In this document: positions 24,119 through 57,675 of the stretch, piece by piece
Layout: every line of letters begins with the position of its first letter
Numbering within the stretch: the first letter of the stretch is position 1
Position numbers and translations under genes: made by a program
DNA from: Azolla caroliniana
Taxonomy: Eukaryota > Plantae > Polypodiophyta
Direction: 5' to 3'
Length of the DNA stretch: 64,000 nt
Assembly (NCBI GenBank): GCA_043228905.1
Contig: JBHGNT010000004.1
Location: 2,914,001 to 2,978,000 of the forward strand
The notes under the pieces: generated by a model
What the model saw: only the letters and a program-made list of their open reading frames with translations
The model's database searches: none
Told to the model about the DNA's origin: nothing

Positions 24119-24123
24119 CAATT

Positions 24124-24136: not shown

Positions 24137-24410
24137 TACAGCTGTGGGTGCACAGCGAACTTCGTTGAATGTAACCACCAGCCGCCGTTACGGCGCCCCC
24201 TCGCACCACGAGGTCTCGGCCACTTGCTCGACGCCCTGAGCCAGTCGAAGGAACTTCCGACTCAGCGGTCACTGACCAATCCTTTCCCGAGCAATCCGAG
24301 GCTTCCCCAGTGCAATCCTCGCCACCGGACACTCGATCGCGAGTTGATTCCCCACCAAAACCCCCTCGAGCCCTCTGGAGGTCAATCAACCGGAACTAAA
24401 CCCTTTCCCG

Positions 24411-27400
24411 GTGCTACCAGAAGACCCAGAGTACGACATCATGCCGTACCCATTACCACGATACACCGACGGACCAGACGCGGAGTCACACATCCGTGCC
24501 TTCATATCCACGTGGCAGGCCAACCACTCAACGCACCGCCTCACGCCGGCCGAAATCGATGCCTCAAAGATTGCTGAGTTCACACTCTCCCTCGATGAAC
24601 CGGCCGCACGATGGTACTCTCGCCTCGAAATAGGAGAGGCCACCACTTTCCAAATCGTGCGCACAAAGTTCCTTGAACTTTTTCATCGCGATGTGCCTAA
24701 ACGGGAACTACACCGGCAATTCTTCTCTATATGCCAAGAACCGCACGAAACGGTCGCGTAGTTCACGATCCGGTTCTAGGATCTCTACAGAAAAGTGGCC
24801 GATGATGTCTCGGCACAACATATACCGGACACTTTCCTGTCCAGTTTACGAGAGCCTCTCTGAACCACTCTCGCACTTACAAATTTCGCCAACCATACTA
24901 TCGAACAAGTCATAGTGCGGGTTCTCGCCCTCGATCGGACCCAGCACGACGCGGCCTTCTCGATGACATCCTTACAAAACGCTCTTCCCCAAGAGGACAA
25001 TCGCTTTCGCCAAGCTCTCCAATGCACGACGTGTTTAGGATCAGGGCACCTGGCCCTCGAATGTCCCCACCAACCACAATGTTCGATCTGTCAGTCTCCA
25101 GCTCACACTGTCGAGCAGTGCGAATATAATATGTTGAACCGCACAACGGCGGCACCGGTCCGTCAGATCGAGCCAAGAAATACATACTCTCGGCAGGACG
25201 AGCGATATGCCTACCGAGACCAGGATAACGACCGACCGCGATCCCCGAATCGACGGCGCCAAGACGACGGCTACCGACGTGATGACCGCCGTGATCACTA
25301 TCGCGATGACCGGCACGACGATTATGCTCGATATGATGACGATCGCGATGACAGCTATGACCGACGGAACTCACGCATTGATCGGCGAAACGGCCAACTC
25401 ACGCAACAATAGAAGACATCACAACAACTGCCGACATGACGCTCCTTAAAATGATCAGCGCAACTCCAACGCACCTCAGACCAACCCACCACCAAACGAG
25501 ACTGGGAATCAACAACAACAGCTTCCACACACAGACCGAGCGGACACCAGCAGCTCGGCCAACGTTACGTGTTTTAAATGTAACCAACCAGGCCACTACG
25601 CCACGCAATGTCTAACAACCGACTGTGGCAAAGCACCTGCGGTGACCGTCACTACCAGGAGTAAAGCGCAGACTACACAATGGCAAATCCAAGACGAAGT
25701 CCGTCAGGCAGCAAAAGAATGGATCGACACGACCAATAAAAAGAATGTCGTGCGCATGCAAACTGACATGAGAGACATGCCCAGCGAAGCACCACAAACC
25801 TCGGTACCATCCACGTTGACGGAGGACGACCAACTATGGGATGTTCTTACCAACTCCCGCATCTCGCTGCCCCTACATAAACTGTTACCACTCATGCCGA
25901 GATTTCGGGACACCCTGGCAGCACTCCAGGCCAATACGAAGCCCATGACACCACCGGTACACCTCACCGAAGCAGGCACAGGTCCACCACTCATGGATTC
26001 TCAGAACCCAGCCGTGCGAAACATCATTAAGGGCCAGGACCTGCATAGATGCATCATCGACGGCGGATTCGGCGTAAACGTTATTAGCGAGTCAACATGT
26101 CAATGGGAACCATGCCCCTTTTGGCTTCGGATGGCCGACACCCGCTCCGTTCGCCCCATTGGTTTAATCCGCCATCTCGATTTCACACTCGGAGGCCACA
26201 TGTTCACGATCTCGGCCGTCGTACTAAGATTGGAGACACAAGGCCCAATGTTACTAGGTCAACCATGGTTGTGTACAACGAATATCAAGCAACATTGGCA
26301 ACGCAACATGATCTCATTCCGAAGAGGCAAGACAAAAGTCTGAATCATCACTGAAGAACGAGTCCCCGTCGCCCTCAACACTTTGCCGATATACGCAGAA
26401 GGGGTCCATATGCTTGACGGTTTGGCCGATGAGGAGGTCGATGACTTCCTAGATGATCATCCCACGATCATCCCTCTCTTCGAAATCAATGCCATACCAA
26501 CCATCGAGCCACCTAAACACGAGGAGGTCACGGAGGAATCACCACCCCAAGATGAACCAGATCCAACCACAGTTGCCGAGCTACGCCATGCTCGGGATGC
26601 TTTCGAACGCGAACTCGCCATTTCACAACGAGTCAAAGCATCAACCCTGGAAACAATAAACCTCGGCTCGGACGAGAATCCTCGTACGTTACAAATTGCC
26701 AATAATCTACCAACCGGAGAACGGGCATCCCTCGTACGATTGCTCACCGACTACCAGGATGTTTTCGCTTGGTCTTACACCGATATGAAGGGGCTCGATC
26801 CTCAATACTACCAACATCAAATCCACCTCTTACCCGACACTCGACCGGTTCAGCAGAGGCGCTACAGGATGAACCCCAACTACGCCGCTAAAGTCAAAGA
26901 GGAAATCCACAAACTACTCCGAGTGGGCTTCATTCGTCTTGTTAAATGGGCCACGTGGTTGAGCACGATCGTAGTAGTCCCAAAGAAGAACGGAAAAATC
27001 CGCGTCTGCGTAGACTATCGGAAGCTTAACGCGGCAACAGTCACCGACGGTTTCCCTCTCCCCTTCATGGACAGCGTCCTCGACACGGTAGCCGGCCACG
27101 AATGCTACAGTTTCCTCGACGGGTTTAGCGGCTATAACCAGATAAGAATGCACCCGGAGGATCATGAGAAAATCGCTTTTGTCACGGAATGGGGTGTTTT
27201 TGTGGCAGAAGTAATGATGTTCGGTCTAAAAACGGCGTCGGCCACGTTCCAACGCATCATCACCGAAATCTTTCCTGACTACATCCCGGCGTTCATGCAA
27301 GTATTTCTCGACGATTTCGCCATGTATGGCCATCGACGGGAACATATGACCCAGTTACGACTCTGCCTGGACCGATATCGCCAAGCTCGATTGAGCTTAA

Positions 27401-29509
27401 ACCCGGCGAAATGCGCGTTCTTAGTCACTAGCGGCAACCTTCTCGACCACATTGTCAGTCAAGAAGGCATCGCTATGGACCCGGATAAAGTAAAGGCCAT
27501 CATGACTGCCTCCGCACCCTCAAACGCTAAGGCACTAAGCCGATTTTTGGGATAGATCCGGTGGCACAGCCGAATGATACGACACCTGGCCGATTTCGCG
27601 ACACCTTTACACGCGGCAATCCATCGCCTCCCCTTCCAATGGACGTCAATCAAGGACACGACCTATCAAACCCTGAAACTAATGTTCTCCCATGCCCCGG
27701 TGGTCCAACCTCCAGTTTGGTCCGAACCGTTTCATGTCTTCGTAGATGCTTCGGACATCACCATCGGAAGTGCCCTGATGCAATGCACACCCCCGAATTG
27801 GTATAGGCCCGTGTACTACGCCAGCCGACGGCTCTCGACCGCGGAAAAGAATTACTCCACCACGGAGCGGGAGGCCCTCGGTATGATTTATAGCATCAAT
27901 AAATTCCGGCATTACCTCTTGGGCCGGAAGTTTACCTTTCACGTGGATCACTCGGCCCTTCTTTATTTGGTCAATAAACAAGCCCTCACCGGACGGTTGG
28001 CTCGGTGGATGCTCCTACTCCAAGAGTTTGATTTCCAGATTCAGCATCGACCCGGGGTACAACACGCCGTCGCCGACTATTTGAGTCGTCTTGAGTTAGG
28101 GGAACCGACGAACACAATGTACGACGAGCTACCGGACGCCAGCCTATTTAACCTTAGTACCACGATGCCAGACATTAACGAAGATGAATGGATCATGGAG
28201 ATGACCCATTTTCTCACTACAGGTTTACCTCCCGAGCACATGCCCCTGGACACGAGAAAACGCCTAGCAGTGCGTAGCCGGAATTTTTGCCTCGTCTCGG
28301 ACATTCTCTACCACAGGCTCGGACGGCATATGGCGCCGAGCGATTCGGCAATTCGAGAAGAACGTCGTTCTTCAGGAGGCCCACCAGGGAGTAGCTGGGG
28401 GGCACTACGCCGGGGATTCCACGGCAAGGAAAGTTTGGCAAAGCGGATTGTGGTGGCCGACAACGAAGAGAGACGCTCACGAGTTTTGCCGGCAGTGCGA
28501 TTTGTGCCAATGATTGGGGCAACCAATGGAACAGTCATGCATGCCACACCAGTCGATTCTTCTGTTGGACCCATTTCAAAAATGGGGTTTGGATTTTGTA
28601 GGCCCTTTCAAACCACCCCCGGCCCGTACAAGGAATAGGTATATTATCGTTGCCACGGACTACTGCACCAAATGGGTCGAGGCTAAAGCTCTCCGAGACA
28701 ACACGGCGGCATCCACGGCTAAATTCGTGTACAAGCATCTTTGGTGCCATTACGGATGCCCAATCGAGCTCGTTAGTGACCAAGGTGGGCACTTCATCAA
28801 TCATATAATACGTGAGCTTACACACCACTACGCGGTGGTGCAATACTACCCGCAGGCGAACGGCTTGGCGGAATTGACCAATAAAATCCTCCAAACCATA
28901 CTGAAGAAGATCGTCAATGAAAACAGGACCGATTGGGATGACAAACTCCAGAGCGTGTTGTGGGCGTATCATACGACTTTCAAAACAAGCATCCAATCAA
29001 CCCCCTTTCGAATGGCGTTCGGGTTAGAAGCCGTAATGCCCGTCGAGTTCCAAGTCCTAAGCCTCCGAGTTCAAGTCAAAGCACGGCTCCCCGAGGTCCA
29101 ATTCGAGCAATACCGGCTGGAACAACTCCTCGAACTCGGCGAAGACAGGATAGAGAGTATGGCCCAACTCGAACAACGCCAACGACAACGCAAGGCTTTC
29201 GTGGATCGACATCGAAACGGGCTGGAGAAGGAGCTCACCATCGGCAAACCGGTTCTTCTTTTTCAAACACGACTCGGGTCAATGTCGGGCAAATTAAGAT
29301 TTCGGTGGACCGGTCCATTCTGGATTATCGACGAGTTCAACGAGACGTTCCAACTCGGCACACTCGCCGGTGACACTGTCAAAAGCTGGGCAAATGGTTT
29401 CCGACTTCAACCATATCGAGGCACTACACCACCCAACCCGTTTACCGAGCCACACGGCACAAACAAGTTTCGGGAGACCCCCACGGAGGAGGCCACGTGT
29501 CCCCCTTAA
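24411..29509 (+). pseudogene. gag-pol of element A, broken by stops and frameshifts
   Basis: Gag with CCHC knuckles, protease IIDGG, RT (KKNGKIRVCVDYRKLN, FLDD), RNase H (FVDAS, TEREALG, DHSAL) and integrase (WGLDF, LVSDQG, PQANGLAE). True gag start not determined. Confidence 0.9.
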
Positions 29510-32231
29510 CAAGGACTCGCCCTTCTTCTTTTTTGAAATTAATAAAGTAGGTAGGATTAACCATAGTTTAGCCGCCGATTAGCTACACCTACACCACCCA
29601 CCTAGGCACCCACAATTTAGGAGCACCCCTAGCCACCTCTCATTTAGTACCTATTTAAGCACATGCAAAGCACTCGAAGCACCCCACTCACCTTCAGGAC
29701 ACGTGGCGCTAGTCACTTATTATGGCACCCACGACTCAGAATCTTCAGGATTCTCTTCGGGCACAAAACCCTAGGAGTAAGTTACTAAAACCGTTTCCAA
29801 AACGCAGCACATACACAGAAGTTCAATATTGCTTCCAACCTCCATCGCTCTCAAGCTCAGAAGCCCCTTCTCGCTCTCATCGCTCTAAACGCTCTTGCTC
29901 TCAAGCCCTCTTTCGCTCTCATAGCCCCTCTGCCGAGCTTCCCCTTCCTGTTGTTCCTCCTCTGTCTCGCCCTCGCCTCATCACTCTTCCATACAGTCAA
30001 ACCCCGTCTCCATCTCCACCATGCCTCTTACCGTTTCAACAAAAACCCACGCCTGACTCCAGGAACGAGGAATGGGCGGTTACCTGAAAATCATCGATGC
30101 CCCCGCGCACTCGGATGCCCAAGGAGTGGCTAAACGTATTTGTCCCGAAGCCATCACCAACAACGTGCTTCGGGCTGCTTTGGACCTGCAACGGGAGGGA
30201 ACCATGAGGTCGACATACCCCCGGCATCGAAGCTGAAAGAGTACTTCGGTGAGTACTCAGCCTCAGGGAAGGCATATCGCACGTATGCCGGTCCCAACAG
30301 AGCTTTCGGGGAGATTGCTCGTATATTGATGGAGTATGCGTTCGTGCATACAAACCCGACGAGCATGCCGCAAAACAAGGCAGCCATCATCATCAGCGCG
30401 TATGAAGGAAACAGAGTCGATGGGGGAATCATCACAGGCGAAGGACTCCGCGCCGCCTTAGCCTCATTCCAGTCAGGTAAGAAGATGTTGTCTGTTCTTA
30501 CCCACTTTTTGATGGTTCTATACCCACCCTCTTCTCTTCCTTCCCCTCGGACACTCATGTCCCCACCACCACCACGAAGGCAGAGAGAGAAATCGGTGGC
30601 CATCAGCCACGAAGCATGGGAGGAGCCCACATCGCCTTCACCTCTTGCCGCCGACCAAAACCCATTCCTAACAAAAAAGGGCAGTTTCTGAGACCTACCA
30701 AGAATGGGAGGAGGAGACAGCCACGGAGGACAACACGGAAGATGATGTCACCATTCGACAGCCCACGCCGCGCCCCTCGGTAACTCCCCCAGGGCCTAGC
30801 CCACGCCCCAACACACAACAGGCAGCACCACCGCGACCCCAGAAAAGGAAGCAGGCGGAGGAAACGACACCACCGGCCCCAGAACCCCAAACCCAGCCGA
30901 GCAAGAGAAGACGACTCAACCGCGAGTCCTCGGCAGAACAGAAAGACCCACAACAGGAGCAAGCCTTAGTTGTCAACCAGAGCAACTTGGCCATCATCCC
31001 TGAAGAGGCATCGTTGAACCAAGGAAAGATCGAGCATGGGCAAACAACGCAGATCTCGGAGGATGAAGTCCTTGGTTATAAAGACCTCCCCACGGAGGCT
31101 TACGAATTTAGTGCGCTCCTATGGCTCGGTACGACATTCGAGTTGGTCGACTTCCTCACCAGAGCCCAAGTCGCGGCAGCCGCTCGAATGGCTGAAGAGC
31201 ACGCCGAAACATAAATGATTCAACGTGCGCTATTAGGTGAAATTGAGCCCCAGGACGACAGGGCTTTACAAAAAATAGGGAGGAAGAAGCAAGCAAAACA
31301 GGCCGCTCTCCTCATGGAGGTCCCCGAGTTGAACACGGCCCTTATCGAGGCATATAGTGACCTGGATCGCACTACGCGGGCAGCCAAAGACATGGCCTGA
31401 AAGATAAAAACAGCCCAAAAACAGGCTCAGGTGGCTACGGAATTATGGCACGCTGCGAAACAGAAACTGGTAGCCTGGGAGCAAAACCGGCCAGAACAAC
31501 AACTCTTGAGCCTTCCGGCCACGACCACTGAGGCCCTCCCAGCCCCTCCATGCATAACATTGATAGATGAAAGCGCCATCACGGATTCAATCTTGACGAT
31601 CCAGGCCAGCACACTAACGGACTCGTTACACATGGTCGATGCCTGCACAACAATCGAGGCGGACACGCCCATGGAGAAGACCGAGATACCACCCCCTCGT
31701 CCAACCAAGGAGGTGGCAACCCAGATAGAACCCCCACTCCGGGATTACCGAGCGGAGCTTAAAGAAGAACAACGGCGGGCCGAGAGACACGAACAACGGC
31801 ATCAAGAGGCCATGGCTCGCTTAAAAGAAGAAGCTTCCAAACATATGGCCGAGATTAGAGCCCAGGCCGACCAAAGGATACACGAGCAGAACGAAGCATT
31901 GGGCCGGGTACAAGCGCAAGCCGCGGGCAAAGAAGCAGAACTCAAAAGCAAGCTGGAGGAATACGCGGCCACAGTGGAAGAGAAAGAGAAGGAGGTCCTA
32001 GATCTACAGGCCGCGCTCGACAATGTGAAAGACTGGAACCACCGGCAAGAGGAAAGAAATTGCCAACGGGAGGAGAGAATGATCGCGGAGAATGCCGAGC
32101 TGCAGAGTCCGCATACGACCCTTAAAGAAATGGCTAACGAGTTTTTCATCAAATGCAAGCTACTTTCGGAGCAAAAAGACGAATTATCTGATTCCTACTT
32201 CGCCCTACAAGAGGAGAGAATCGTCGAACGG

Positions 32232-33031
32232 TGTCGAGATATTACGCAAGTGCGTGTGGAATAGAGGCGGGACCGCGGGGGTCTCGAACCAAAGAGCAAG
32301 CGAGGGAGGAGAAAGAGAGAGAACCGGCTACGCAGGACCGGGGATACACAGGGACACGGCCCTTCAGCACGGAGAACGCGAACAGACACCGACACAGACG
32401 GATGCGAATGACTAAATATGTGTATTAACAAAATGGCTAACACGACTACAACCCCCGATGGGGCACAGGTTGGTTGCAACCGAACAGGCCGGCGAACAGA
32501 TGCCGATGCCTGTTCGCTTCGACGCACAAACGGGGAAATGGGGGGGGGGTAGCAGGTCGGAGGTGCTGCCGGAAGCACTCGGGCGTTCCTCGAAACAGCG
32601 CGAGCCTCCCCGGAACCCTGCACAGAAAGCTTTGGAGCTCAAGAAGGAAGGAAACAGAGAGAGCGAAGCGTCCAGAAACGGTCCGACAGCACTTCGTCCT
32701 CTCCGCGCCAGATCCCTGCAACAGCTCTTTCCCGCTCCTTATATAGGCCGACGAACAGGCCGTCGTGTCAGCTTTATTCCCTGTCCCTTTTGGACAGGGA
32801 TCCGCTCCGTTTTTCACGGATCCGAGTAGTTACGCCGCCGACTCGTACAGTTCGCGCGCGCGACCGAAAAGACTGTTCGAGCGGTCTTTGTCTCCACTTG
32901 AGTTAGGGCCCGTTCCTGCCGATTATCCTCTCAATTCGTTTCTATGTACAACTCGGAGCGTGCGCGCGTGAAGAACCGGTTCCCACGCCTTGGTGCGCCG
33001 ATTCCGCCTATAGACGGTTTTCTTCACGACA
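32232..33031 (-). repeat. 3' LTR of element B
   Basis: Near-identical to 38762-39561; preceded on the minus strand by the G-rich PPT TTAGGTGGGGGCGGA (33032-33046). Confidence 0.95.
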
Positions 33032-33102
33032 TCCGCCCCCACCTAACCGCGCATCCTCCGGTATGCGCCAAGAGAGTTGGGACGGAGAAAACCGGCCCGT
33101 CT

Positions 33103-36100
33103 TCATTCCTCGCCCGTCGGTTCTTCTTCATTTTCGGATCGTTCGTCATTGCCGACCAGGAGAGCCGGGTCTGGCTCGTCGTCGTGTCGCTTCTTGAACG
33201 CTTTGATCCGCTTCCCTGCAACCGGTATCGCCATTCTCGTGCCGTCAAGTTCCGCCAGGTGATATGTCCCGTTGTCATTGGCACTCCGTACCACGTAAGG
33301 CCCGAACCACCTTCGTGCGAACTTCCGTGTGGCTCGGTGCTGGTTGTCGAGGCTGCTGTCGTAGACGAGCACCCAGTCACCTTCTTCGATTTTCTTCGGT
33401 CGTAGCCGGTGCGTTCGGTCGAACCGGGCTTTGTTCTTTGTCCTCGCCACCCGGAGCTTCTCCGTAGCCAGTGCCACGTCCTCCGGCCTCCGCTCGAGCT
33501 GTCGTATACGTGCGACCAACAACTCCTCCCGGCTCATCTCGTCCCTCCAGTCGACCGCTGCCCACGAGGAGATCGTCCGTTCAACCGGCATGATCGGCTT
33601 CTGGCCGAACATGAGCTCCGTCGGCATGTACCCGGTTACCGAACTGTGCGTGGTCCGGTCTGCCCACAAAGCATAAGGTAGCAGCCGCGGCCAGTTACCG
33701 ACTTGGCCTCCGCATGCCCGAATCAACGCCTTGACGATCGGTCCGTGTCCGCGCTCCACCTTTCCATTCGCCTCCGGATTGTACGCAGTGGTGAGCGAGA
33801 GCTTGACTCCAAGCCGGTCGAACAGCTCCGCGGCCTCTTCGGCGTCCAACTCCCCTCGGTCAGCCACGATCTTCCCGACGCACCCGTACCGGCATATCAC
33901 GTCCTCGACTAGGAACCGACACACGGCCGCGGTCGTCTTGTTCTGAAGGGCTCGGCCTTCCACCTGGTTCGTCAGGTCTTCCCGCGCTAGGACCAGATAC
34001 CGCATCTGTCCTACCCCCATCGGCATCGTCACCAGATCTACCATCCATTTGAAGTGGATAGTCGGAGGGTACGTAGGGTGAAGCCCGTCCCGGTGTCGGA
34101 CTATCGAGTGCATCTGACAACTCTCGCAAGTTGACACGAACCGATGCACGTCCCGGTACAATCCCGGCCACCAGTACTTTCCCTTCAGCTTCTCAAACGT
34201 CGCCCACGTTCCACGGTGTCCAGCCCAAGGGCTGTCGTGGTAGGCCGCCAGTAGCTCCTCCTGCTCTTCCTTCATCGCCACCACTCGGAGCGGGACGCCG
34301 TCCCTCTTCTTCGGGTGCTTCCATAGATGCCCATCTCGGAGAAAGAATCGATATGCTTTCTTCCGGATCCGGTTGGCCTCGTCCTTCGTCCATGACGCAT
34401 CGGGCGTCATCGTCTTCAAAAACCCGCCGATCTGCAGCCATTCCCCGTCGTACTTGCTCGCGTCGAACTCGTTAAGCGCCGGAGTGCTCATCCCGTCGGT
34501 CGTTATGTATGCCGCCTCGAAGAAATCCACGCCGACTTCTTCGTCTTCCGAAACCATGCCGCCCTCGTCGTCGTACCTCGCCCTCGAAAGCATGTCGGCC
34601 ATGGCGTTGTCTTTCCCGGAAATGTGTCGTATTTCCGGGTCCAGGGACTTGATGTACGCTATCCACCTGAGCATCGCCAGGTCCGGAGTCGCGCATCCGG
34701 AAACCATACCGAGAATCGGCAGGCAATCCGTCTCGATGATCACTTCCGTCCCTATCAGGTAGTCTTTGTCGGCCTTAACCGCCGAAACAATACCCCAGAG
34801 TTCGCGTTTAACCTGGGCGTACCCTCGCTGCCGTTCACTGAGGACTTTCGCGCCGAATCGGATCGGAAACCGATTGCCGTCCTCGTCTTCCTGGTTCACG
34901 ACCCATCCGATCCCGGTCGGACTGGTATCCACCGTTATGAATACCGGGGTACCCTTCCCGTAAACCGCCTTCCGGAGTGCCGGTGCCGCTGCAAGGGCCT
35001 CTTTCAGCTTCCGGACCGATTCCGCGTGCTTGTCTAGCCATTCGAACCTTCGCCCCTTTTTCAGCAACCCGTACAGTGGCTCCGCGACGTGTGCGTAATG
35101 CGGGATCCATATGTGGTAGAACGCGCATGCCCCCAGGAATCTCCGTACTTCCGTGACCGAGCTGCAGTCGGGCTTCATCGCGGAGATGGCTTCTACCTTC
35201 GCCGGAGACGGTTTCCGGCCATATGGTCCGCACAGGTGTCCGACCACCATGATTTCTGACTGCCCGAAGGCCGACTTCTCCCCGGAGAAGGTGAGTCTCG
35301 CATCCTCTAGCCTTTGCAACACCTTCTCGCAGTCGTCGACGTGCGTCGCCACGAATCGCCGGCATCCGTCCGGCCCGATCGTCTCGTCCTTTTCTTCCAC
35401 CGGGCATCCCTTGATCGGGATGTCGTCCAGAAACGGCATGGTAATGTCCGGGACACAGTCCCTCAGAACCTTGTTCATCGCATTCACCATGTGGGCCACC
35501 GAGTTGGTCCCTCCTTGCGGCAGTGTACACATCCGAACTAGGCCGAGGGGAGTTCGCATCGTCGTAAGGTCTCTGCTCTCCACGGCCAGCTGGAACTGGT
35601 CGTACCCTGAGTATAGATCCCCGACCGAGTAAATTGACCTTCCGGCGAAGGCCTCCGCGAACTCGTCTATGGTCGGTCCGATTCCTGCGTTCCGAATGGT
35701 CACTCGATTGACCGGCTGCAGGTCCTGGATGAAGCGCAGCGAACCGTTTTTCTTCGGTACGGTAAACCATCGATTCGAATATGGGGCGCTCGACGGCTCG
35801 AGAATTCCCATATCAACTTTCTGCCTCAGCAGCTCCATCAACTTCGGGATGTGAGCTCTCGAAACCGGGATTGGCTTGAGATTCCATGGTACATGCGGTA
35901 CCGTGAATATCAGCATCGGCTCCACGATCGTCGGGTCAACGCACCCGATTTCCTCCGGCGAGAATGCGAAGGCTTTCCCGTGCCTTCCGAGCATTCTCCG
36001 AAACCGGTCTTCCTCCGCCGGCAGTAGGAACCCGCCCCCACCGATTTTGAGCTCTCGGAGCGTCTCGTCAGTGAAGGTGTGCCCTATGCAGGCCGGATCT

Positions 36101-36600
36101 CGTAGACTAGGGTCTGATGCAACCCCTTTGATTCTCGACGCGCTGTCCTCCGGTAAGGGTGCCGCTACTGGCCTTACCTTCCGGTCCACAGTCTTGTACT
36201 TGGTGTTTACGTGGGCCGTCCGAACTGACTCGAGCCCTCGACCGAAGTCCGCGATGACTTCGTACATCTCCTCGGAACACACCGGTATCGTCCGGTTGTC
36301 GTTAAGGCCTTCTTCGACTACCTTTCCCAGCATTCCCAAGGTGTCGTCGAATGAGACCGCCTCCACGGCTCCGTTGATTTCCTCGTCCGGGCCGAGAACC
36401 CCGCACGCTCGAAGTCTCGCCTCCGTCTTTGTTTTCTCTCGGCCGGCGATGCCGACCATCGCACACGCTCCGCTGTCGGAGAACAAAAATTCCCTACCTA
36501 TGGTACAAGGTTTCTTCGGTTTTATCGTACAGGTGTGGGGTTTTCCCGGGGTGTCCGGACTGTCGCGGCCCCACGCCTTGGCAGCCCTCTCTAAAAATCC
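33103..36600 (-). CDS. Pol (RT-RNase H-integrase) of element B, predicted to be expressed by -1 frameshift
   Basis: Open frame with PKKNGSLRFIQDLQPVN, DLYSGYDQ, FLDD, ITVDTS, ETDC, H..H..C..C, WMVDL, VADRG and PEANGKVE. The frame is open upstream through GGATTTT at 36600-36594. Confidence 0.9.
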   Translation of the reverse strand, partial: GFLERAAKAWGRDSPDTPGKPHTCTIKPKKPCTIGREFLFSDSGACAMVGIAGREKTKTEARLRACGVLGPDEEINGAVEAVSFDDTLGMLGKVVEEGLNDNRTIPVCSEEMYEVIADFGRGLESVRTAHVNTKYKTVDRKVRPVAAPLPEDSASRIKGVASDPSLRDPACIGHTFTDETLRELKIGGGGFLLPAEEDRFRRMLGRHGKAFAFSPEEIGCVDPTIVEPMLIFTVPHVPWNLKPIPVSRAHIPKLMELLRQKVDMGILEPSSAPYSNRWFTVPKKNGSLRFIQDLQPVNRVTIRNAGIGPTIDEFAEAFAGRSIYSVGDLYSGYDQFQLAVESRDLTTMRTPLGLVRMCTLPQGGTNSVAHMVNAMNKVLRDCVPDITMPFLDDIPIKGCPVEEKDETIGPDGCRRFVATHVDDCEKVLQRLEDARLTFSGEKSAFGQSEIMVVGHLCGPYGRKPSPAKVEAISAMKPDCSSVTEVRRFLGACAFYHIWIPHYAHVAEPLYGLLKKGRRFEWLDKHAESVRKLKEALAAAPALRKAVYGKGTPVFITVDTSPTGIGWVVNQEDEDGNRFPIRFGAKVLSERQRGYAQVKRELWGIVSAVKADKDYLIGTEVIIETDCLPILGMVSGCATPDLAMLRWIAYIKSLDPEIRHISGKDNAMADMLSRARYDDEGGMVSEDEEVGVDFFEAAYITTDGMSTPALNEFDASKYDGEWLQIGGFLKTMTPDASWTKDEANRIRKKAYRFFLRDGHLWKHPKKRDGVPLRVVAMKEEQEELLAAYHDSPWAGHRGTWATFEKLKGKYWWPGLYRDVHRFVSTCESCQMHSIVRHRDGLHPTYPPTIHFKWMVDLVTMPMGVGQMRYLVLAREDLTNQVEGRALQNKTTAAVCRFLVEDVICRYGCVGKIVADRGELDAEEAAELFDRLGVKLSLTTAYNPEANGKVERGHGPIVKALIRACGGQVGNWPRLLPYALWADRTTHSSVTGYMPTELMFGQKPIMPVERTISSWAAVDWRDEMSREELLVARIRQLERRPEDVALATEKLRVARTKNKARFDRTHRLRPKKIEEGDWVLVYDSSLDNQHRATRKFARRWFGPYVVRSANDNGTYHLAELDGTRMAIPVAGKRIKAFKKRHDDEPDPALLVGNDERSENEEEPTGEE

Positions 36601-38717
36601 TCTTGGTTATCGGAACCGAGGGAGTCGCGGTTACGCTCGTGGTTCGGCCTAACCGTCAAAAACTGGACCGAATGGCGGCCGTCCTGGCTCTTGACCCGCG
36701 CATAGGCCGAACCATTGTCCAGCACCTTGGTCTCCATTCGCGCCGCCGTGATGTACGGCTCTCCCAGTATGACCGGATGCGAAGACGTCTCCTGCACGAA
36801 GAAGTGCTGGTCAATCTCGACGTCGCCGATCTTGACTCGCACATTCGGACAGGCCCCGTGCAGTTCCTCGGTGGCGCGCGTTGCTGCCCTTATTTTCCAC
36901 CCGTGCTTGGTGTTGATCGGCCATTTGCCCTTCTTATAGAAGTCCATGGACATCAAATTGATCTCCGATCCGTGGTCCACCAAAGCTATCACCGGTTCCT
37001 GGACATCGCCGATCTTCACCGGGGTTTCCGTGGTCGCTCGGGCCCAGTGCGGTCTCGAATAGTGGCTTTCCGCCCACTCGTCTCCCAGCGCCATGTCGTC
37101 TAGGTGCGTCGTCCGCACTTCCACCGGTCTTTCCGGTTCTGTCTCCGTTGACAGCCTCTTCCGTTTCACCAAGTCCACGATGGAGTCGTGGAACTCCTTC
37201 TTGGCGATTCCAAGCACCTCCCGTAGCGACAGCTCCACCTTGCTGTCGAGGATCCGTTCCTCCAGGACCTTTCGTAAATCCGTGGTTCTTTCTATCTCCG
37301 TCCCCAGACGGTACCCGCCCTTCTGGGGTTTATCTTGCGTACCGGCCCTGCCGGCTTCGTCCCGTCGTGGCCCGGACCGGGTCTCGTATCGTTGTGAGGG
37401 CCCGGTCGTCCCGGGTTTTCCCACCCGCTTCTCTTCTACCAGAGCCTCGTAGTTCCGGCAAGCGGCTTCCACGAAGCCCGTCCTTTCCTCGACCGGGTCG
37501 CTCCACCCGGTCATCTCCCGTACCCGTTTCTCCGCACGGTCCGATTCCTCCCTTTTAAGCCCTGCACCGGCAAGGCCTTCCAGCATCGTCGGCCAGAACC
37601 CGGCTTTGCTTTCCTTTCGGGCCTCGCCGCCCCCGACTCGAATGCCGGCCGACGCCGAGTAGTGGACGGTTTCCGCGTGTCGGGCCGCCGCCTCTTCCAT
37701 CAACCTTTTCATACCACCCTTTCCGTCGTTTCGGCTCAGGGCCCTTCGGGTGTCGCTGGCATGCACCCGTCCTTCCCACAGGTACACCACCCGGTCCCTC
37801 AGCGCCTCCGCGAAGTCGCCGCAGTCCTTCCGAACGTGGCCGACTTCATCGCACCACATGCACCTGTTTCCTGCCGCCGGCCGTCGGTCACGAGCCGGTT
37901 CGCCTCCTTCCCTTCGGGCCTGCGCGATTTGGAGGTCCTTTATCGCCTTCGTCAATTCCTCCAGCGCCGCTCCTCCGGTTGAGCCTCTGACTACGCCGGT
38001 CGAAGCCGAACCGGTTTCCAACCACTCCCGGGTCTCTTCCTTGCGCACCTGTGGCGCTGGTTCGAGCTTCCTTGCTGCGACCGAGCCCGACCCAGTCGCC
38101 CCGTTATCCGCCCATTCTCGCCGTTTGTCGAAACGGCCACAGACCTTCCTGACAGCCGCCCAGTCGGTAGTGAGCCCGTCTTCGGTTTCCAGCAAGAGGC
38201 CCACTTGCTCCCGATCCCGCTCGTCGACCGACTTGACAAACAGCAAGACCCGGCTCGTGTCCAGGATGGTTCGGTCGAGCGCCGAAAGGCGCGCAAAGTT
38301 TTCCTCGAACTCCCGGAGGAGTGCCGACGCGTTTCTTCCCTTCCCCGGGGACTCCACCCATTCCATGAACCTTCGCTTCGAAAGCCGGAGCGCGTCGTCC
38401 AGCCCGTATTTCTCTAGGAGCCGACCTTCGAACTCCTCCCAGGTACGGCTCTCCGCCCGCACCTCGAGCACCTCCGCATGGATGCTCGGCATTGCCACTC
38501 GGGGAAAACCGGCAAGACGCCTTTCTTCCGGAATGTCCCGCATCAACATTTCTGCACCGTAGGACGCCAGATACTTCGTGGCATCCCTCCCATCGAACCG
38601 GCCGATCGTGCCGACGACCGCCTCAATAGCTCTGTCGAGGGCACCGGTACCCTCGCGCGCGTTTACGATCCGATCCACGGCCGAAGCCATGGCCTCTGCG
38701 AGATCCGACCCCCTCAT
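36591..38717 (-). CDS. Gag-protease of element B
   Basis: First ATG at 38717; zinc knuckle CMWCDEVGHVRKDC; aspartic protease ALVDHGSEINLM and VILGEP; ends GAT TTT TAG. Confidence 0.9.
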   Translation of the reverse strand: MRGSDLAEAMASAVDRIVNAREGTGALDRAIEAVVGTIGRFDGRDATKYLASYGAEMLMRDIPEERRLAGFPRVAMPSIHAEVLEVRAESRTWEEFEGRLLEKYGLDDALRLSKRRFMEWVESPGKGRNASALLREFEENFARLSALDRTILDTSRVLLFVKSVDERDREQVGLLLETEDGLTTDWAAVRKVCGRFDKRREWADNGATGSGSVAARKLEPAPQVRKEETREWLETGSASTGVVRGSTGGAALEELTKAIKDLQIAQARREGGEPARDRRPAAGNRCMWCDEVGHVRKDCGDFAEALRDRVVYLWEGRVHASDTRRALSRNDGKGGMKRLMEEAAARHAETVHYSASAGIRVGGGEARKESKAGFWPTMLEGLAGAGLKREESDRAEKRVREMTGWSDPVEERTGFVEAACRNYEALVEEKRVGKPGTTGPSQRYETRSGPRRDEAGRAGTQDKPQKGGYRLGTEIERTTDLRKVLEERILDSKVELSLREVLGIAKKEFHDSIVDLVKRKRLSTETEPERPVEVRTTHLDDMALGDEWAESHYSRPHWARATTETPVKIGDVQEPVIALVDHGSEINLMSMDFYKKGKWPINTKHGWKIRAATRATEELHGACPNVRVKIGDVEIDQHFFVQETSSHPVILGEPYITAARMETKVLDNGSAYARVKSQDGRHSVQFLTVRPNHERNRDSLGSDNQEDF

Positions 38718-38739
38718 CTTCTGCTCTTCTGCCGCCTCT

Positions 38740-38757
38740 TTCACGTCGGGTTCACCA
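38740..38757 (-). promoter_or_regulatory. Primer-binding site of element B (tRNA-Trp)
   Basis: Minus strand TGGTGAACCCGACGTGAA, 4 nt inside the 5' LTR; complementary to the plant tRNA-Trp 3' end TTCACGTCGGGTTCA-CCA (from memory). Confidence 0.85.
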
Positions 38758-38761
38758 AAGA

Positions 38762-39561
38762 TGTCGAGATATTACGCAAGTGCGTGTGGAATAGAGGCGG
38801 GACCGCGGGGGTCTCGAACCAAAGAGCAAGCGAGGGAGGAGAAAGAGAGAGAACCGGCTACGCAGGACCGGGGATACACAGGGACACGGCCCTTCAGCAC
38901 GGAGAACGCGAACAGACACCGACACAGACGGATGCGAATGACTAAATATGTGTATTAACAAAATGGCTAACACGACTACAACCCCCGATGGGGCACAGGT
39001 TGGTTGCAACCGAACAGGCCGGCGAACAGATGCCGATGCCTGTTCGCTTCGACGCACAAACGGGGAAATGGGGGGGGGGTAGCAGGTCGGAGGTGCTGCC
39101 GGAAGCACTCGGGCGTTCCTCGAAACAGCGCGAGCCTCCCCGGAACCCTGCACAGAAAGCTTTGGAGCTCAAGAAGGAAGGAAACAGAGAGAGCGAAGCG
39201 TCCAGAAACGGTCCGACAGCACTTCGTCCTCTCCGCGCCAGATCCCTGCAACAGCTCTTTCCCGCTCCTTATATAGGCCGACGAACAGGCCGTCGTGTCA
39301 GCTTTATTCCCTGTCCCTTTTGGACAGGGATCCGCTCCGTTTTTCACGGATCCGCGTAGTTACGCCGCCGACTCGTACAGTTCGCGCGCGCGACCGAAAA
39401 GACTGTTCGCGCGGTCTTTGTCTCCACTTGAGTTAGGGCCCGTTCCTGCCGATTATCCTCTCAATTCGTTTCTATGTACAACTCGGAGCGTGCGCGCGTG
39501 AAGAACCGGTTCCCACGCCTTGGTGCGCCGATTCCGCCTATAGACGGTTTTCTTCACGACA
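38762..39561 (-). repeat. 5' LTR of element B
   Basis: 800-bp copy; TATATAAG TATA-like box on the minus strand near 39268-39276. Confidence 0.95.
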
Positions 39562-40524
39562 ACGGGAACAAGTCCGGGCCGCGTGTCAAAAAGAATGGGA
39601 GAAAGCTACCGAAGAGCTCACCAAGCATTACAAGCAGTCTATCCAGCTCGTAACCGCGGACGCAAAGAACACTCTAGCCACCTATGAACTACTCACAAAG
39701 AAGCTTTAGGCCGAGGTCAACAGCTTAAAAGAGGAATTGGCAGTCGTCCGAGCACAGCCCGGCATGGATGAGACATGCATCAGAATACTGATCGAGAAAC
39801 AGTGCCAACACCTCACCAAAAAGGTCGAGGAAACATTAAGTTGCGCAGGAGAGGAATGGGCAGCCCAAGCTGCCGAATTGCATATTTTACGCGCCGACGC
39901 CGAGAACCGACGGAAGGAGGGCCGCGGCTTTTACAAAATGGACGAAGCCAGCATACAAAACCTTCGTTCAGATTTAACCGAGGATTACCAGTCCTTGGCA
40001 AAATCTCACATCGCGGCAATCAAGCAAATACTAGAGGACTTCAATGACGATCAGATGTTGTTTTGCCTAGAAGCAGAAGCCTTCGAACGAGAACGACTCG
40101 TAGCCATCCCGACCAGCCCTCCAACGGCCACAGAGCAGAAGGAAGAACCTCCCAGCGAGGAGATCACAGACATGGCACAGGAGGAACTCGCCCCGGCCAA
40201 CAGACCTCCCGAGGACGCCCACACAGTACCAGATCCAGTCAAAGTAGAGGGCAGCGCCCTCGAACCCACACCACCACCAGAAGAATCAGTCGCACCTGAG
40301 ACGGACGCCCGAGAGGATATGACACCCCCGGACCAAACTCAACCCCCCGCACCGACAATCCAACCAGACCACCCTGCCACCACCCCGGACCTCGAAAACA
40401 TCCTCGACATCTTAGAAGAGGAACGAAAGGAGGATCACGCCTAAAAGGCAATTTTTGTAATGTTGTTAGTATTTTGTAAGTCGTCGGTCCGACGGACAAG
40501 GTCCTATCCCACGGGCGTGCCAGG

Positions 40525-41010
40525 TGTTGTCCAAAGGACAGAAATGTAAAAATTAGGAAATTAGCAAACGGCGGTAGTGTAACCGAGTAGGAAAGAACGC
40601 CAACGAGCGCCGAGTCAGAGTATTACGGGCTCGGCTGTGTATTAGGGGAAACGTTATTTAAACAAGGTCGAGCACCTCAGAGAGAGAGAGAAAAAATATA
40701 GGCGGAAGCACTAGCTTAGTCGATCGTAACTAGATAATCCTGTAATGGCACCGGCCGTAGGCCGTGTTCTGTAATCCTTTTGGTGTTGTAGTAATATATC
40801 TGATTTGTGCCCATTTTGCTCCATGTATCTGTGCTTTGGCTCATACTTATGATTTCAGCGCCGCCCACGCTTAACAAGATCTCGCTAGTGTTTTATCTCT
40901 GATCGTTTTCTCCCTCACGACGCCTCTATTATGAGCCTTCACATACCACGCCCTTGGATACCGATAGCCGCAGGTCTATCGAAGGTGTTCACCCAAAGGA
41001 ACGGGTAACA
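40525..41010 (+). repeat. 3' LTR of element A
   Basis: TGTTGTCC...GGGTAACA followed by the TSD GATAG. Confidence 0.95.
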
Positions 41011-42465
41011 GATAGGTCAAGAAAACCAAATAGAAACAAGGCATGACATTAGTTGGTTCTAAAACTAGTGCATCTATCCATTTCTCGTGGAACATATTTT
41101 TGTTTCCCTTGACATTCATCTAAGCAAACATCAATGGGTTTTAGTTTCACATTATGTTGCACACATTAATAATGCATCACACAATGAAATATAATAAAAC
41201 TTTTGTTGGAAAATTTTAGATTCTGATAGTTTGGTGTTCGACAAGCACATGCGTAAGAGATAGAGCTTTGCTCTCATTCAACTTGCTCACAATTAGGGAA
41301 GATGAAGTTTGGTGTTTGTATGCCAATATTGTGGTGCACTCATTGCTCAAACAATCCCAAACAAAATTGAGACAGTTCCATCAGCTAGTCCCAACGACTA
41401 GCTACCAATAGTTGCCCCAACGTCTAGATATGACCCTATATAAAGAAATGGTGTGGAGGATCATTCCTCATTCTCAAATTCCCATATTCCCATATTTTGC
41501 TCCAAGGAATGTGGTGGTGTTCTCTTCCTCAATCAATTTTGGAGTTGTCCCGACTCGTCCCCATTCATCCCAACTTAACTCAATTTTTGGTTATGTCCCA
41601 ATTTTGGGACTGTTGTAATATTTTTAGTGAACATAATATAAGAGCATTTGAGTCCTATACTTGTTTCCATTCACATGTCCTTGTGTAATCTTGATTTTGG
41701 GACGTAACATATACGTTGTAAGTGAATGTGCGTTCCAATTACATCTTGTGGTAAATTATATGCACAAAGGTAGTTATTTGTATCCCCTTGCTCAAAGTGA
41801 TTTTGAGCATAATTTGTATATCATATATAGTAAATGAAGCATAACCAAATACAATGAATGCAATAATAAATATTTTTACCTTGGCAAATAGAAACCCAAA
41901 AACTTTATAACTCCATAGCAACAATGCCAAAATGAAAGCCCTTTTGTTGACTGAATTACAAAATACCCCTTCCATTTCTTGACCTTTCCTTAGGATTCTC
42001 CAAATCTTTCCTTCTATTTCCCTAACTACAATTCAAAAAGGAATTGTGTGGATAAGCAAGGGGTCAATGTTAAGGTATAGGAAACAATGATTTGGATGAG
42101 TATGTAGTCTACCTAGGAATCTAATCACGCAACATCAACAACAACAAAATGTTGTTCACATCAAATTTCATGTTTGCCACATCATCCAAAACACTTTACT
42201 TGTCGTAAGATGGCAACCCAATCAAGAACAAAGAGTTGGACAAAATAGGGCACATATTCCCTAGATTAGGTAAGGTTTCACAGCTTCAATTTCCAACCTA
42301 ATGTGTGTCTCACAATAAGATCAAGCCTACAACATGTAAATTAGTAGTTATGTTGGGGTGGTGCAAGAAGGGGCAATGCAATTTGCGTAAGGTAACAAGC
42401 TAGAGTTTGATACATGAAGCTACATTAGTTAATCAAGGGAAATTGATACATTTACAAAATATATA

Positions 42466-49766: not shown

Positions 49767-50123
49767 CTCTTTTGAGTCTTCACAACACCCAAGCTTTTTG
49801 TTGTTCTCGTGTTTGTACACATAAGTCTATAACCTTGCGATCGCGCTAAATTCTTCTACCTCGGGTTCTCGGGTTTATACGTGTGCCCGCCATTAACATG
49901 TGAAACCATACGCTTCTTCTTCATTGTCTGATGCCGGTCATTTCACTCTTTTGAGTCTTCACAACACCCAAGCTTTTTGTTGTTCTCGTGTTTGTACATA
50001 TAAGTCTAAAACCTTGCAATCGCGCTAAATTCTTCTACCTCGGGTTCTCGGGTTTATACGTGTGCCCGCCATTAACATGTGAAACCATACGCTTCTTCTT
50101 CATTGTCTAATGCCAGTCATTTC
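49767..50123. repeat. Near-identical tandem duplication, 2 x 179 bp, in the SR45a upstream region
   Basis: CTCTTTTGAGTCTTCACAACACCC at 49767 and 49946; about five substitutions. Confidence 0.92.
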
Positions 50124-54256: not shown

Positions 54257-54299
<43 letters not shown>

Positions 54300-54311
54300 G
54301 CGTGTATGTGT
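54239..54311. repeat. (TGTATG)n microsatellite
   Basis: About 12 hexamer units just upstream of PBB. Confidence 0.9.
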
Positions 54312-54449
54312 GGACATGCTCAAAGTGCCTTTTGTGCGTCAGTGTTTGTGTGGAGCTTTTGCCCAACACTAATTTGAAGGTCTGGTCTGGACTCGGTCCA
54401 TCAATGACCCTCGGTTTGTTTGCCATGGTATATGTGTATGTGTATGTGT

Positions 54450-55317
54450 ATTGGCTAGTCAATTTTGGACCCATCAAGGGGTCACATCCGATTTTTTAGC
54501 AAAGTTTTGGAGGACATTATGGGCAAGGAAACAAGATATGAAAATAAATGTCTTCCGATGGCTAGTAATACATAGAGCATTACTGATCGACCAATGGTTG
54601 CAACAATCAGGTGGACCGATTGCATGCATCTATTGTGGTTGCCAGACGGAGACATTGAAACATTGCTTGTGAGAATGTCATGTTGCACGACAAGTTTGGA
54701 GAAGAGTGTTCCGAATTCTAACCTTTATGTCTAGGGATGGCGGTTTTTCCTGGGGGATGTGGTCATATGAAGCATGTCCAAATGATACGATCATTAGAAT
54801 TCAAAGAGGAAGGATAAGGGTGGTGCAATGAAGTTATATGGAAATTCCTTATATGTTAAAGGCAATGCAAGATGTATGGGAGCTGCTATGCACCACCACA
54901 ATGTGGTTTATTTGGATTGTTAGATGTTCTAAGGTGTTTGATAATACTACTATTCATCATGTGGAAAGTGTACCTGGATGCATATGGTGCATACATTGAA
55001 AGGGCGGTATGATGAATTTAAAGGTGAGATAGATGTTGCAATGTTGCAATGCCTCAATTTTATCACCTATTCGAACAAGGGCCCTTTTCTCACACTACAA
55101 AACACAAGATCGATATGATGCCTAGCACCACCAATTACATAACTAGGTTATTGAGTGGTAGAGTGTTGATGCTATCTATCCTTTAGGGATGGGAACCCAT
55201 GGAAGAGGGCAACATATCAAGGGAGGCTTGACGGTAGGTCAACATTCTTGTAATAATTGTTTATAAGTTATAACTAATGAAAGGATATTTTCATGGGAAA
55301 TTTAAATAAATAAATAA
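54450..55317 (+). mobile_element. 5'-truncated L1-type LINE (zf-RVT), related to 21896-23579
   Basis: FWRTLW..KINVFRWLVIHRAL..CIYCGCQTETLKHCL(W)EC..ARQVW and HTLKGRYD; (TAAA)n tail; 18-bp candidate TSD ATGTGTATGTGTATGTGT at 54432-54449 and 55318-55335. Confidence 0.8.
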
Positions 55318-57675
55318 ATGTGTATGTGTATGTGTGGACATGCTCGCAGCTCAATGTGCCTTGTGTGTGTGTGTGTGGAGCTTTTGCCCAACACTAATTT
55401 GAAGGTCTAGTCTTGACTCGGTCCATCAATGTCCCTCGGTTTGTTTGCCATGGTAGCGACTCTCGTATGAGTTGGTAATTCCCAAGTGTTGGCTTTTCCA
55501 ATCTTTGATGGTTGGTCTGGTCTCTTGGGAATCTCATCATTTTAAGCGTGTAAGTCTGCATCCAATATTGGGATGGTTTGACCCCTCGAGATGCCCCATA
55601 TTGTTGCCCTCTCATAGAACCCTAAGTGTCAACTTACGATCCATCCACATGACACCTACCATATTGCACTCCAAAGCTTCCAAATGATTGTCTTAATGGT
55701 TTGTTCAAATTATATATACTTCTATTAGGATAATCTTGTGGCCATTCTACTATGTTTCTTGGATTGTGGGGAATAGAAGGAAAAAAACATGCATGGGTGC
55801 AAGGAGGGAAATGGATGCATCTTGAATATTGTAATCTTGGAGACTTGTAAAGAACAACTCATCTCCCAATAAACATTGCTCTAGTAGAACATTCCCTCAA
55901 ATGTATATTGATAACATACCATCACAAAACACAATGTCTCTTTCTCATTCAACAATGCATGATTCAAACTTGTTCCAAATTCATGGGCAAGCATACCATG
56001 TGCAAACAAACTCGCCATTGCCTTCTCATACTACTATCACATTTTATTTAGACAAGATTGTATGTTCAATACTCAAACATACTACAAAAGAACACGACTT
56101 GAAGCATGTTGTGAAGTGGAGTGTACTAAACAAACACCTTTGATTTTACAACAATTTGGTAACGTACATCAAATTAATCTACTTCCATGTTCTTTAATTG
56201 AAGGTAGAACCACAACTAATTTATTGCAAAATAACACGTGCAATATTTATGTTATTCCCCCTGGCCAGCAGGTGCACCTTAAACAAACATCTTGGAATGA
56301 TTTGGCATAAGAGAGGCAATGAAATGCTTCCCATTCCTATGCTAAAACCACAACAATGCATTAATATATTGGAATTCGATGAAGATAGGAGAATTTTAAT
56401 AAGCGGACCGACTTACAAGTGTCAATGCATACAAGTTTTTATGTTTCTCAACTCGAAACTATGTTGATATATTGGAAAAGAGGCATAGTCCAAATGTTTG
56501 CCTAGTGGAGAAAACATACGAGAAGATTATAGAAAATTGACATTATTTAGTGAGGAGGTGGCATTTGATCTACCTGGGATACTTGCCACTTCACATTCCT
56601 TTTCGCGGTGTCTACATGAAAGTAATCAAAATTGTTGGAAAAGTACGTTGATAAAATAAGGCTCAATGCACACATACATAAATAGCCTCTAACAAAGGCC
56701 CCTTATTATAGGGTTGCCAAATAAAGGCTCAGTGGACTCTAATTTCCCACACACATAGAACTTATAACCACCATGGAAAACTCCTCATTCAAAATGTTTT
56801 CCAAACTATTTGCGAAGGAATTTTGCACCTACAATTATCACCTACTTCTACTCTCCTCTATTGGAATAACACACAAAAGACAAACTAAAACACAAAAAGC
56901 AATGACGAATCAACTCAACCAATATCCTCTGACACATATGGTTGCTAGCGTGCAACACTCCTACCCATGGAGCAAGAGATGCCCCCCCCTTAATCCATAT
57001 GTCTACAACGTAAATCTCATTTATTCACATCAATGTGATCGGCAAACCAATTTGTTATCGTTCATGGATCGTCAATTGAAATATTGCCCCTTGAATGGCT
57101 AATTTATAGACAACAGTTAGTTAGTTTGCCTCATCAATCGTTCGGTTCAATGTGTGGTATGGCAGAGATAAAAAATGTCATGCATGCAACCCAAAGTCTG
57201 GTGCACACGGAAACGTAGTTCAAAAATTGAAATAGGAGATTTCGAGAGCCTCGGAGCACGGGTTTGTAAAAACATGAGTTACCACTAGAGTTCAATGGAA
57301 TGAGATATGTACATATAGATGAGATGAGTTCATACAAGATTTGAACCCGGGAGCATGGGTCAGCAAAAATAGAAAATTAAAAGAAACAGAAAACAAACAG
57401 AGCAACATACAGAATTTCTGATACATACATACACACATTGTCTTCTGCTCTTGACTTCAGATATTGCAGAGGGATCAGGGATCTTAGCAGGTATGTGTCT
57501 TTCTCTCTGCACAGACAAGACCCTTCTCAAGTGCCTCCAAGTTTCTATCCTTTTCTTGGATTGAAAGAATCATTCTATTTGATCTCATGCACCTGTCATG
57601 TTTGTTGCTGCTCTAAATATAAAATAAAATCGCATCAGTTCCTTTGAAGATCTACTGAGAAAAGGATCATTCAAA

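Follow-up and report, generated by a model that had tools for sequence, protein, structure and literature searches.

The window, that is the whole stretch of 64,000 nt that was analysed, contains a decayed copy of a Ty3/gypsy LTR retrotransposon, called here element A, into which a second element (element B) is nested. The long terminal repeats (LTRs), target-site duplications (TSDs), primer-binding site (PBS), reading frames and the cassette described below are arranged as follows.

23633-41010, plus strand: element A, Ty3/gypsy LTR retrotransposon, decayed copy, recognised by its LTRs, TSD and coding domains
23628-23632, plus strand: left TSD, 5 bp, GATAG, repeated at 41011-41015
23633-24118, plus strand: 5' LTR of element A, TG...CA, 486 bp, with 96.3% identity to the 3' LTR
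24119-24123, plus strand: spacer between LTR and PBS, 5 nt
24124-24135, plus strand: PBS, complementary at 12 of 12 positions to the 3' end of the stand-in tRNA-Arg(UCU) L089
24441-29509, plus strand: gag-pol, broken by stops and frameshifts, its start inferred by tblastn of relatives
29642-40444, plus strand: extra 3' open reading frame (ORF), sense, interrupted by element B, located by tblastn with the 1170-aa ORF of relative L006
32232-39561, minus strand: nested element B, an independent and younger Ty3/gypsy insertion that carries a PBS and a purine-rich tract of its own
40483-40492, plus strand: cassette part 1, tRNA positions 49-58 (5' strand of the T-stem and T-loop up to A58)
40493-40505, plus strand: cassette part 2, insert of 13 nt that contains a 4-bp hairpin and separates tRNA positions 58 and 59
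40506-40522, plus strand: cassette part 3, tRNA positions 59-76 including CCA, minus one C of 65-66
40523-40524, plus strand: spacer between CCA and 3' LTR, 2 nt (GG)
40525-41010, plus strand: 3' LTR of element A, 486 bp
41011-41015, plus strand: right TSD, 5 bp, GATAG

Element A measures about 10 kb without element B, and its two 486-bp LTRs differ at 18 positions (3.7% divergence). The coding order is gag (with a zinc knuckle), protease-like motif, reverse transcriptase (RT), RNase H and integrase, the protease being recognised by its motif only and without a Pfam match. No Pfam match to an extra archaeal-type RNase H (aRH) was obtained in the ORFs of the window or in the intact relatives P0001 and P0004, and the extra 3' ORF (about 940-1170 aa), which stops 39 nt upstream of the cassette, matched no Pfam family above the cut-off. 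The same ORF lies at 1381-4890 in L006 and at 916-3723 in L017, and in all five cassette-bearing elements (the window copy and the relatives L006, L017, L032 and L056) it ends with an acidic motif, ILDIL followed by D or E, at most a few dozen bases before the cassette. A TATA-like motif is found on the sense strand of all five LTRs and on the opposite strand of two. A short hairpin is predicted just inside the LTR start, beside the predicted priming site, in four of the five elements (40527-40545 in the window; L006, L017 and L032). For ATHILA elements, an AT-rich spacer of 3-6 bp between LTR and PBS is given as usual in the accessible part of bioRxiv 10.64898/2026.03.20.713144.

Nested element B is Phygy-like, with a 4-bp NCGN-type TSD, LTRs 99.75% identical, open frames of 726 and 1167 aa and a PBS which we take to be of the kind for tRNA-Trp. 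Elsewhere in the window, three perfect copies of a 200-bp unit (3033-3635) represent either a very recent duplication or an assembly artefact; a tandem array of 63-67-nt units (13907-14304), a 179-bp tandem duplication (49767-50123) and two repeats of about 140 bp separated by 1 kb (54292-55455) were also observed.

The initial annotation placed a 16-nt tract at 40507-40522, followed by GG and by the 3' LTR at 40525, and this position is correct. Its statement that no polypurine tract (PPT) precedes the 3' LTR of element A is borne out by the composition of the junction, where the last 15 nt contain 9 purines (12 in the outgroup L034) and no purine tract, the closest run of at least 11 purines lying at 40137, within the extra 3' ORF. 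The complementarity to the PBS described there is also exact, 40512-40522 being the reverse complement of 24124-24134 at 11 of 11 positions. Given the local base composition, an exact 11-mer would fall by chance at one of the 6 offsets next to the LTR with a probability of about 1.7e-6. Over the whole window, the matches to a 10-mer with at most one mismatch are as numerous as expected (2 observed, neither inside an LTR, against 1.85 expected), so that the signal rests in the position of the tract. Four exact matches to the 16-mer outside the window are unrelated and due to chance. As an internal control, nested element B carries an ordinary purine-rich tract at the corresponding position. The polypurine tract is absent from element A, and a tRNA-matching cassette stands in its place.

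The 16-nt tract is the 3' end of a cassette of 40 nt (40483-40522) that ends 2 nt before the 3' LTR, and the likeness to tRNA reaches 24 nt upstream of the tract first described, across an inserted hairpin. The cassette corresponds to positions 49-76 of the tRNA-Arg(UCU) of a bacterial stand-in, L089, interrupted between positions 58 and 59 by 13 inserted nt and lacking one C at 65-66; both peculiarities are found in all five elements. The stand-in was found with a pattern built from the cassette, which matched 8 loci, 2 of them tRNA-Arg(UCU) genes according to ARAGORN. The mimicry of a tRNA-Arg 3' end with one missing base, proposed in the initial annotation, holds against this bacterial tRNA, which is not that of the host; we assume that the 3' end of plant tRNA-Arg(UCU) is like that of L089. 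A plant tRNA 3' end was sought in published text and one supplement and was not found, and ARAGORN recovered from loci L005-L084 two tRNA genes, neither of them Arg. Within the window, ARAGORN and Rfam detected no tRNA or RNA family, nor did Rfam in the cassette of L056 at E up to 10.

Against positions 49-76 of this bacterial, non-host reference, the five cassettes match at 24, 26, 25, 25 and 23 of 27 letters, part 1 accounting for 8 of 10 in the window, 9 of 10 in L006, L017 and L032, and 7 of 10 in L056. The spacer between CCA and LTR is 2 nt long in all five elements and its first letter varies. Two letters of the window cassette, 40485 and 40506, are private to this copy, and the majority letters in sequence reads restore the match to the tRNA. 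The few differences are in the majority wobble-compatible changes (G to A, T to C), which are also those that cytosine decay gives; position 55 in L017 and position 75, within the CCA, in L056 are unable to pair with the tRNA even by wobble.

Relatives were collected by an integrase scan of metagenome contigs covering about an eighth of the collection, in which at least 534 of 559 stretches were confirmed and the best 80 loci were used. Liverwort, fern and lycophyte names appear among the protein matches, which together with the Phygy-like element B would hint at a moss-like host. Protein scans of viral contigs gave no relatives. In a quick integrase tree of 24 of the best 80 loci, 51 of 120 proteins and the window, the latter falls within a clade of 15 rows (11 loci, 3 proteins and the window) with an SH-aLRT support of 100%, and the rows carrying aRH form a separate clade. 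The LTR junction is reached by four of the 11 clade loci, L006 (87% integrase identity), L017 (71%), L056 (69%) and L032 (66%), and in each of them the tract lies 2 nt ahead of the LTR. The contig of L007 extends 3.75 kb downstream and exits the element before the LTR, and that of L032 exits it after the LTR and is without a visible PBS. Except for the window and L006, the LTRs of the cassette-bearing elements are unalignable. A profile of the five cassettes gave no further copy among the best 80 loci at E below 1. The outgroup L034 (42% integrase identity) has an ordinary PPT and an Athila-like PBS, its LTR edges having been deduced from a circular contig. In L040, L042, L045 and L049, purine runs precede TG but were left out of the PPT count, the LTR edges being unverified. 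In the distant relative L048 (38% integrase identity; region 14965-15024), only a weak purine stretch precedes the 3' LTR and the PBS resembles that of L056.

Reads were taken from six of 24 listed public runs, four contig runs (three organisms) and two raw RNA runs; no run recorded as RNA stood among the listed carriers of the sequence. The bin 40493-40519 is the deepest of 30 bins in three contig runs and the second deepest in the fourth, with summed depths of 80,460, 147,440, 108,800 and 200,496, compared with 3,136 to 11,719 at 40439-40465; summed depth is not copy number and is taken here only as the mark of a stretch common to most subfamilies. In each of the four contig runs, a second peak of depth coincides with the U5 end (40979-41005), which is therefore also common across subfamilies. 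In two contig runs (419 and 255 records), no alternative letter reaches a share of 4% between 40503 and 40533, except at 40506 where the window copy is odd, and no insertion or deletion is listed in the cassette at this share. Other copies, in the reads of three organisms, and the four junction-reaching relatives carry the tract and not a PPT, so that the normal PPT in other copies which would have refuted the initial annotation was not found. In the contigs of organism C, the loose end behind the LTR consists of the spacer and the same 11-nt PBS, with a low agreement of 0.49 over 32 records. In run X1, the loose end behind 40528 shows the LTR start of a sister family with 11 nt complementary to stand-in tRNA positions 59-69 (9 contigs, agreement 0.68), which may be only the hairpin at the LTR start. 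The raw RNA runs gave 10 and 18 reads only, without a pile-up of ends, a number uninformative on cleavage after the CCA. Poly(A) RNA reads cross the cassette into the LTR, and the cassette is therefore part of transcripts. Over 40510-40524, the first mate lies on the minus strand in 18 of 22 RNA reads, which would represent sense RNA provided that the library was made in the usual stranded manner (the type is not on record).

To what extent the cassette is held by sequence or by structure was examined with the five elements. Among the four relatives, pairwise identity is 93% for positions 59-76 and 75% for positions 49-58, compared with 53% for the insert and 21% and 27% for the flanks. The insert keeps its 13 nt and its short hairpin in all five elements with four different stems among them, that of L032 being displaced by one register, and its loop letters vary freely in DNA reads. 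Changes on both sides of a pair concern two of the four insert pairs and none of the five T-stem pairs, and the covariation score is 0.289 versus 0.098 in shuffles (reached in 3 of 500 shuffles, which with five rows only is not a probability). RNA reads of a sister family show a further two-sided change, 40496/40502, with identical counts at both positions (3 of 8 and 8 of 10 reads). As aligned, the innermost pair of the T-stem fails in two of the five elements, and position 55 of the T-loop takes three letters. As expected for an outside tRNA partner of fixed sequence, the tRNA-like parts appear to be held by sequence and the insert by shape.

The complementarity between PBS and tract, complete in the window and L006 (11 of 11), falls to 9 of 11 in L017 and 6 of 11 in L056. 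The PBS of L056 fits another tRNA (7 of 11 to the stand-in) and yet the cassette was kept; this comparison rests on a single contig, in which the 3' end and the PBS are connected across one collapsed LTR. That the cassette of L056 is at the 3' junction is confirmed by the end of the extra ORF upstream, which is common to these elements. The PBS and the 3' tract therefore do not covary, which argues against PBS pairing as the function. The arrangement first described as an inverted PBS probably arises as a side effect of two sites that match the same tRNA on opposite strands.

Based on these sequence comparisons, we propose that the complement of the cassette, on the minus-strand DNA, binds a second host tRNA-Arg which would prime the plus strand, the first of the options offered in the initial annotation and a reading for which we judge the case slightly better than balanced. 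The mechanism would comprise five steps: (i) a tRNA at the ordinary PBS would prime the minus strand; (ii) RNase H would clear the RNA and expose the complement of the cassette, whose first 11-12 nt, predicted to be single-stranded, could act as a toehold; (iii) tRNA-Arg(UCU) would anneal over about 27 nt (positions 49-76), with the 13-nt DNA hairpin looped out opposite 58/59 and one C of the tRNA bulged about 11 nt from its 3' end; (iv) RT would extend from the CCA, the 2-nt spacer supplying the overhang; and (v) RNase H would remove the tRNA, the bulge possibly setting the cut. The usual overhang at the cDNA end of LTR elements is trimmed by integrase, and eukaryotic tRNA carries m1A58, i.e. 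at the site of the insert. When the last 28 nt of the tRNA were cofolded with the minus-strand cassette, a duplex with looped hairpin and bulged C was predicted in all five elements, at -23 to -30 kcal/mol with RNA parameters as a proxy for those of RNA/DNA hybrids. For the minus strand folded by itself as DNA, the first 11-12 nt are predicted to remain unpaired in the four relatives and not in the mutated window copy.

Several observations favor this tRNA-primed plus strand. The missing C is fixed in all five elements and in the reads, and gives a bulge only if the partner is a tRNA. Preservation of sequence in the tRNA-like parts together with that of structure in the insert fits an outside tRNA as partner, and the reading is further favored by the change of the L056 PBS while its cassette stayed, and by the purine tracts at the same position in outgroup L034 and in element B. 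In Ty3, a distortion of the helix shifts RNase H cleavage about 11 bp downstream (PMC5371799, accessible sections); by analogy, the bulge about 11 nt from the CCA end could set primer removal. On the other hand, positions 55 (L017) and 75 (L056) are incompatible with pairing to the tRNA, RNase H would also attack a tRNA annealed to DNA unless this were protected, the reference L089 is bacterial and was found with a cassette-built pattern, and five elements were compared. PPTs are kept by sequence too, so that conservation alone is compatible with a primer made of the element's own RNA. An argument that the first-strand PBS is repaired from the tRNA at each cycle was dropped, the PBS of Ty3 not being inherited from the primer according to the accessible sections of PMC5371799. 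The broader proposal, that the whole clade primes both strands with host tRNAs through a split site, a hairpin at A58 and a bulge directing primer removal, and that families of the L056 type would use two different tRNAs, appears to us evenly balanced.

The main alternative, unlikely in our view and still to be taken seriously, is that the element's own RNA, an option also raised in the initial annotation, forms a T-arm-like hairpin which survives RNase H, is cut just after the CCA and then acts as the plus-strand primer, a tRNA-shaped replacement for the PPT. The plus-strand RNA is indeed predicted to fold into a hairpin (-12 to -19 kcal/mol) that leaves the CCA outside the stem in L017, L032 and L056, and the cassette occupies the position of a PPT and is present in transcripts that read through into the LTR. 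Moreover, the PBS matches the tRNA over only 11-12 nt, so that RT may recognise a T-arm stacked on a short duplex. A structural mimic should however drift with compensation, as the insert does, whereas the T-stem shows none and loses its innermost pair in two of five elements, position 55 takes three letters, and the T-loop is interrupted by the 13-nt insert. The fixed missing C would also be without a role if the RNA paired with its own copy.

An improbable alternative is that the cassette binds or mimics tRNA for packaging, RT pausing or strand transfer, the plus strand being primed by an undesigned short GC-rich RNA remnant. It is consistent with the 8-9 purines found in the 15 nt before the LTR and with the variation of PPT sequences between elements (PMC5371799, accessible sections), but it accounts neither for the lack of a separately kept purine tract nor for the CCA end lying exactly 2 nt before the LTR in all five elements, which is the place required for the 3' end of a primer.

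Still less probable, the antisense transcript could be the replicating genome, or both strands could serve, with the complement of the cassette as the true first-strand PBS. This site would have the longer match to the tRNA (about 27 nt versus 11-12) and a 2-nt spacer, and 4 of the 22 RNA reads over 40510-40524 are in the minority direction. The TATA-like motif on the sense strand of all five LTRs, which contrasts with two of five on the other strand, gives little support to the initial suggestion that both strands serve as template, and the 18 of 22 sense reads, subject to the library type, are also against it. This explanation only moves the problem, the other end being also without a PPT.

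Pairing of the tract with the PBS of the same RNA, which would circularise it or allow self-priming as the initial annotation had also considered, is a shade more doubtful again. The predicted pairing energy, -22 kcal/mol in the window and -14 in L006, where complementarity is full, weakens to -10 in L017, which has a C-A mismatch, and to -4 in L056, so that such pairing finds no support as a conserved function; it leaves the upstream 24 nt of the cassette unexplained and is largely refuted by L056, subject to its single contig with collapsed LTR. A copy-specific rearrangement or chance, for which the decay of the window copy (3.7% LTR divergence, broken pol) could be invoked, is refuted by the presence of the feature in the reads of three organisms and in four other families, and we consider it negligible.

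Element A possesses the features of Ty3/gypsy elements, with direct TG...CA LTRs and TSD, the order gag-protease-RT-RNase H-integrase and a tRNA-complementary PBS, except for the PPT before the 3' LTR. In canonical LTR priming, as in Ty3 and HIV-1 (PMC5371799, accessible sections), a tRNA at the PBS and an RNase H-resistant PPT are used; element A has in common with these systems the LTRs, the 5' PBS, RT, RNase H, integrase and the presence of a priming signal immediately upstream of the 3' LTR, but this signal is a tRNA-matching cassette ending with CCA instead of a purine tract. The same sections describe the bipartite PBS of Ty1 and Ty3, in which the acceptor stem and T arm of the tRNA pair with two separate segments, split in Ty1 by a small loop, much as a hairpin divides the cassette. 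Those segments are tRNA-complementary on the genomic RNA and serve the minus strand, whereas the RNA of the cassette is tRNA-identical, so that the site would exist only on minus-strand DNA.

Compared with the plant non-chromovirus Ty3/gypsy elements in the accessible part of PMC6317226, element A shows the same domain order, no chromodomain, and the 5-bp TSD and extra ORF of the OTA elements; its PBS is of the tRNA-Arg type, as in TatIII, Ogre and Retand. The Tat elements (TatI-III, Ogre, Retand) possess an aRH in this source, and element A is without it. Athila shares with element A the lack of aRH, the 5-bp TSD and the extra ORF, but its PBS is that for tRNA-Asp or Asn and its PPT junction is conserved, neither feature being found in element A; the separation of its clade from Athila is one of features, the quick tree having had no labelled Athila row. 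Phygy (4-bp NCGN TSD, tRNA-Trp PBS, no extra ORF) differs from element A in all three respects (5-bp TSD, Arg-type PBS, extra ORF), and Selgy (4-bp TSD, tRNA-Ala PBS, about 5 kb) in its TSD and in its length, about 10 kb for element A without element B. Element A belongs to the non-chromovirus Ty3/gypsy elements, and none of Tat, Athila, Phygy and Selgy agrees with it on all the features listed in supplementary table 5 of the accessible part of PMC6317226, and the cassette-bearing elements form their own integrase clade. For these plant lineages, the same part of PMC6317226 describes no loss of the PPT; its reference sequences and per-element table may hold members of this clade.

Two other types of LTR elements carry comparable sequences. 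The TRIMs Helenus, Ajax and Cassandra (PMC10886601, accessible part) contain, as element A does, a sequence derived from a small RNA, but it lies inside the LTR, is likely a Pol III promoter, and belongs to non-autonomous elements that keep PBS and PPT, its author having found no priming role, whereas the cassette of element A is outside the LTR of a coding element. The self-priming Tf1/sushi, Tcn1 and TAR elements (PMC10085805 and PMC6317226, accessible parts) encode an 11-nt complement of the PBS, as does element A; the self-primer of the Tf1 type is however the 5' end of the RNA, inside the LTR, and the PPT is kept, whereas the complement in element A is outside the LTR, at the position of the PPT, and does not covary with the PBS. 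In the openly accessible literature that was searched, no description was found of a tRNA-like cassette replacing the PPT or of tRNA-primed plus strands. The one published use of 'inverted PBS' that was found concerns iPBS marker primers, and a presumed link between the ends of Ginger transposons and tRNA was discarded, the words tRNA, PBS and primer each being absent from the text of PMC2836005.

The PPT is regarded as near-universal in the replication of LTR retroelements and is a defining signal for annotation tools. The feature described here is real, conserved across the clade and unexplained by known priming signals, the mechanism being the part that we infer. An abundant natural clade with a tRNA-shaped site in the place of the PPT means that plus-strand priming can be rewired, and makes it possible to test directly which properties RT and RNase H require to choose and remove the second-strand primer, and how the PBS and PPT signals are related. 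If a tRNA primes both strands, both initiation steps would be under the control of the tRNA supply of the host and of tRNA fragments; and if the primer is instead the element's own RNA, an element-encoded, tRNA-shaped primer would likewise be a new kind of plus-strand signal.
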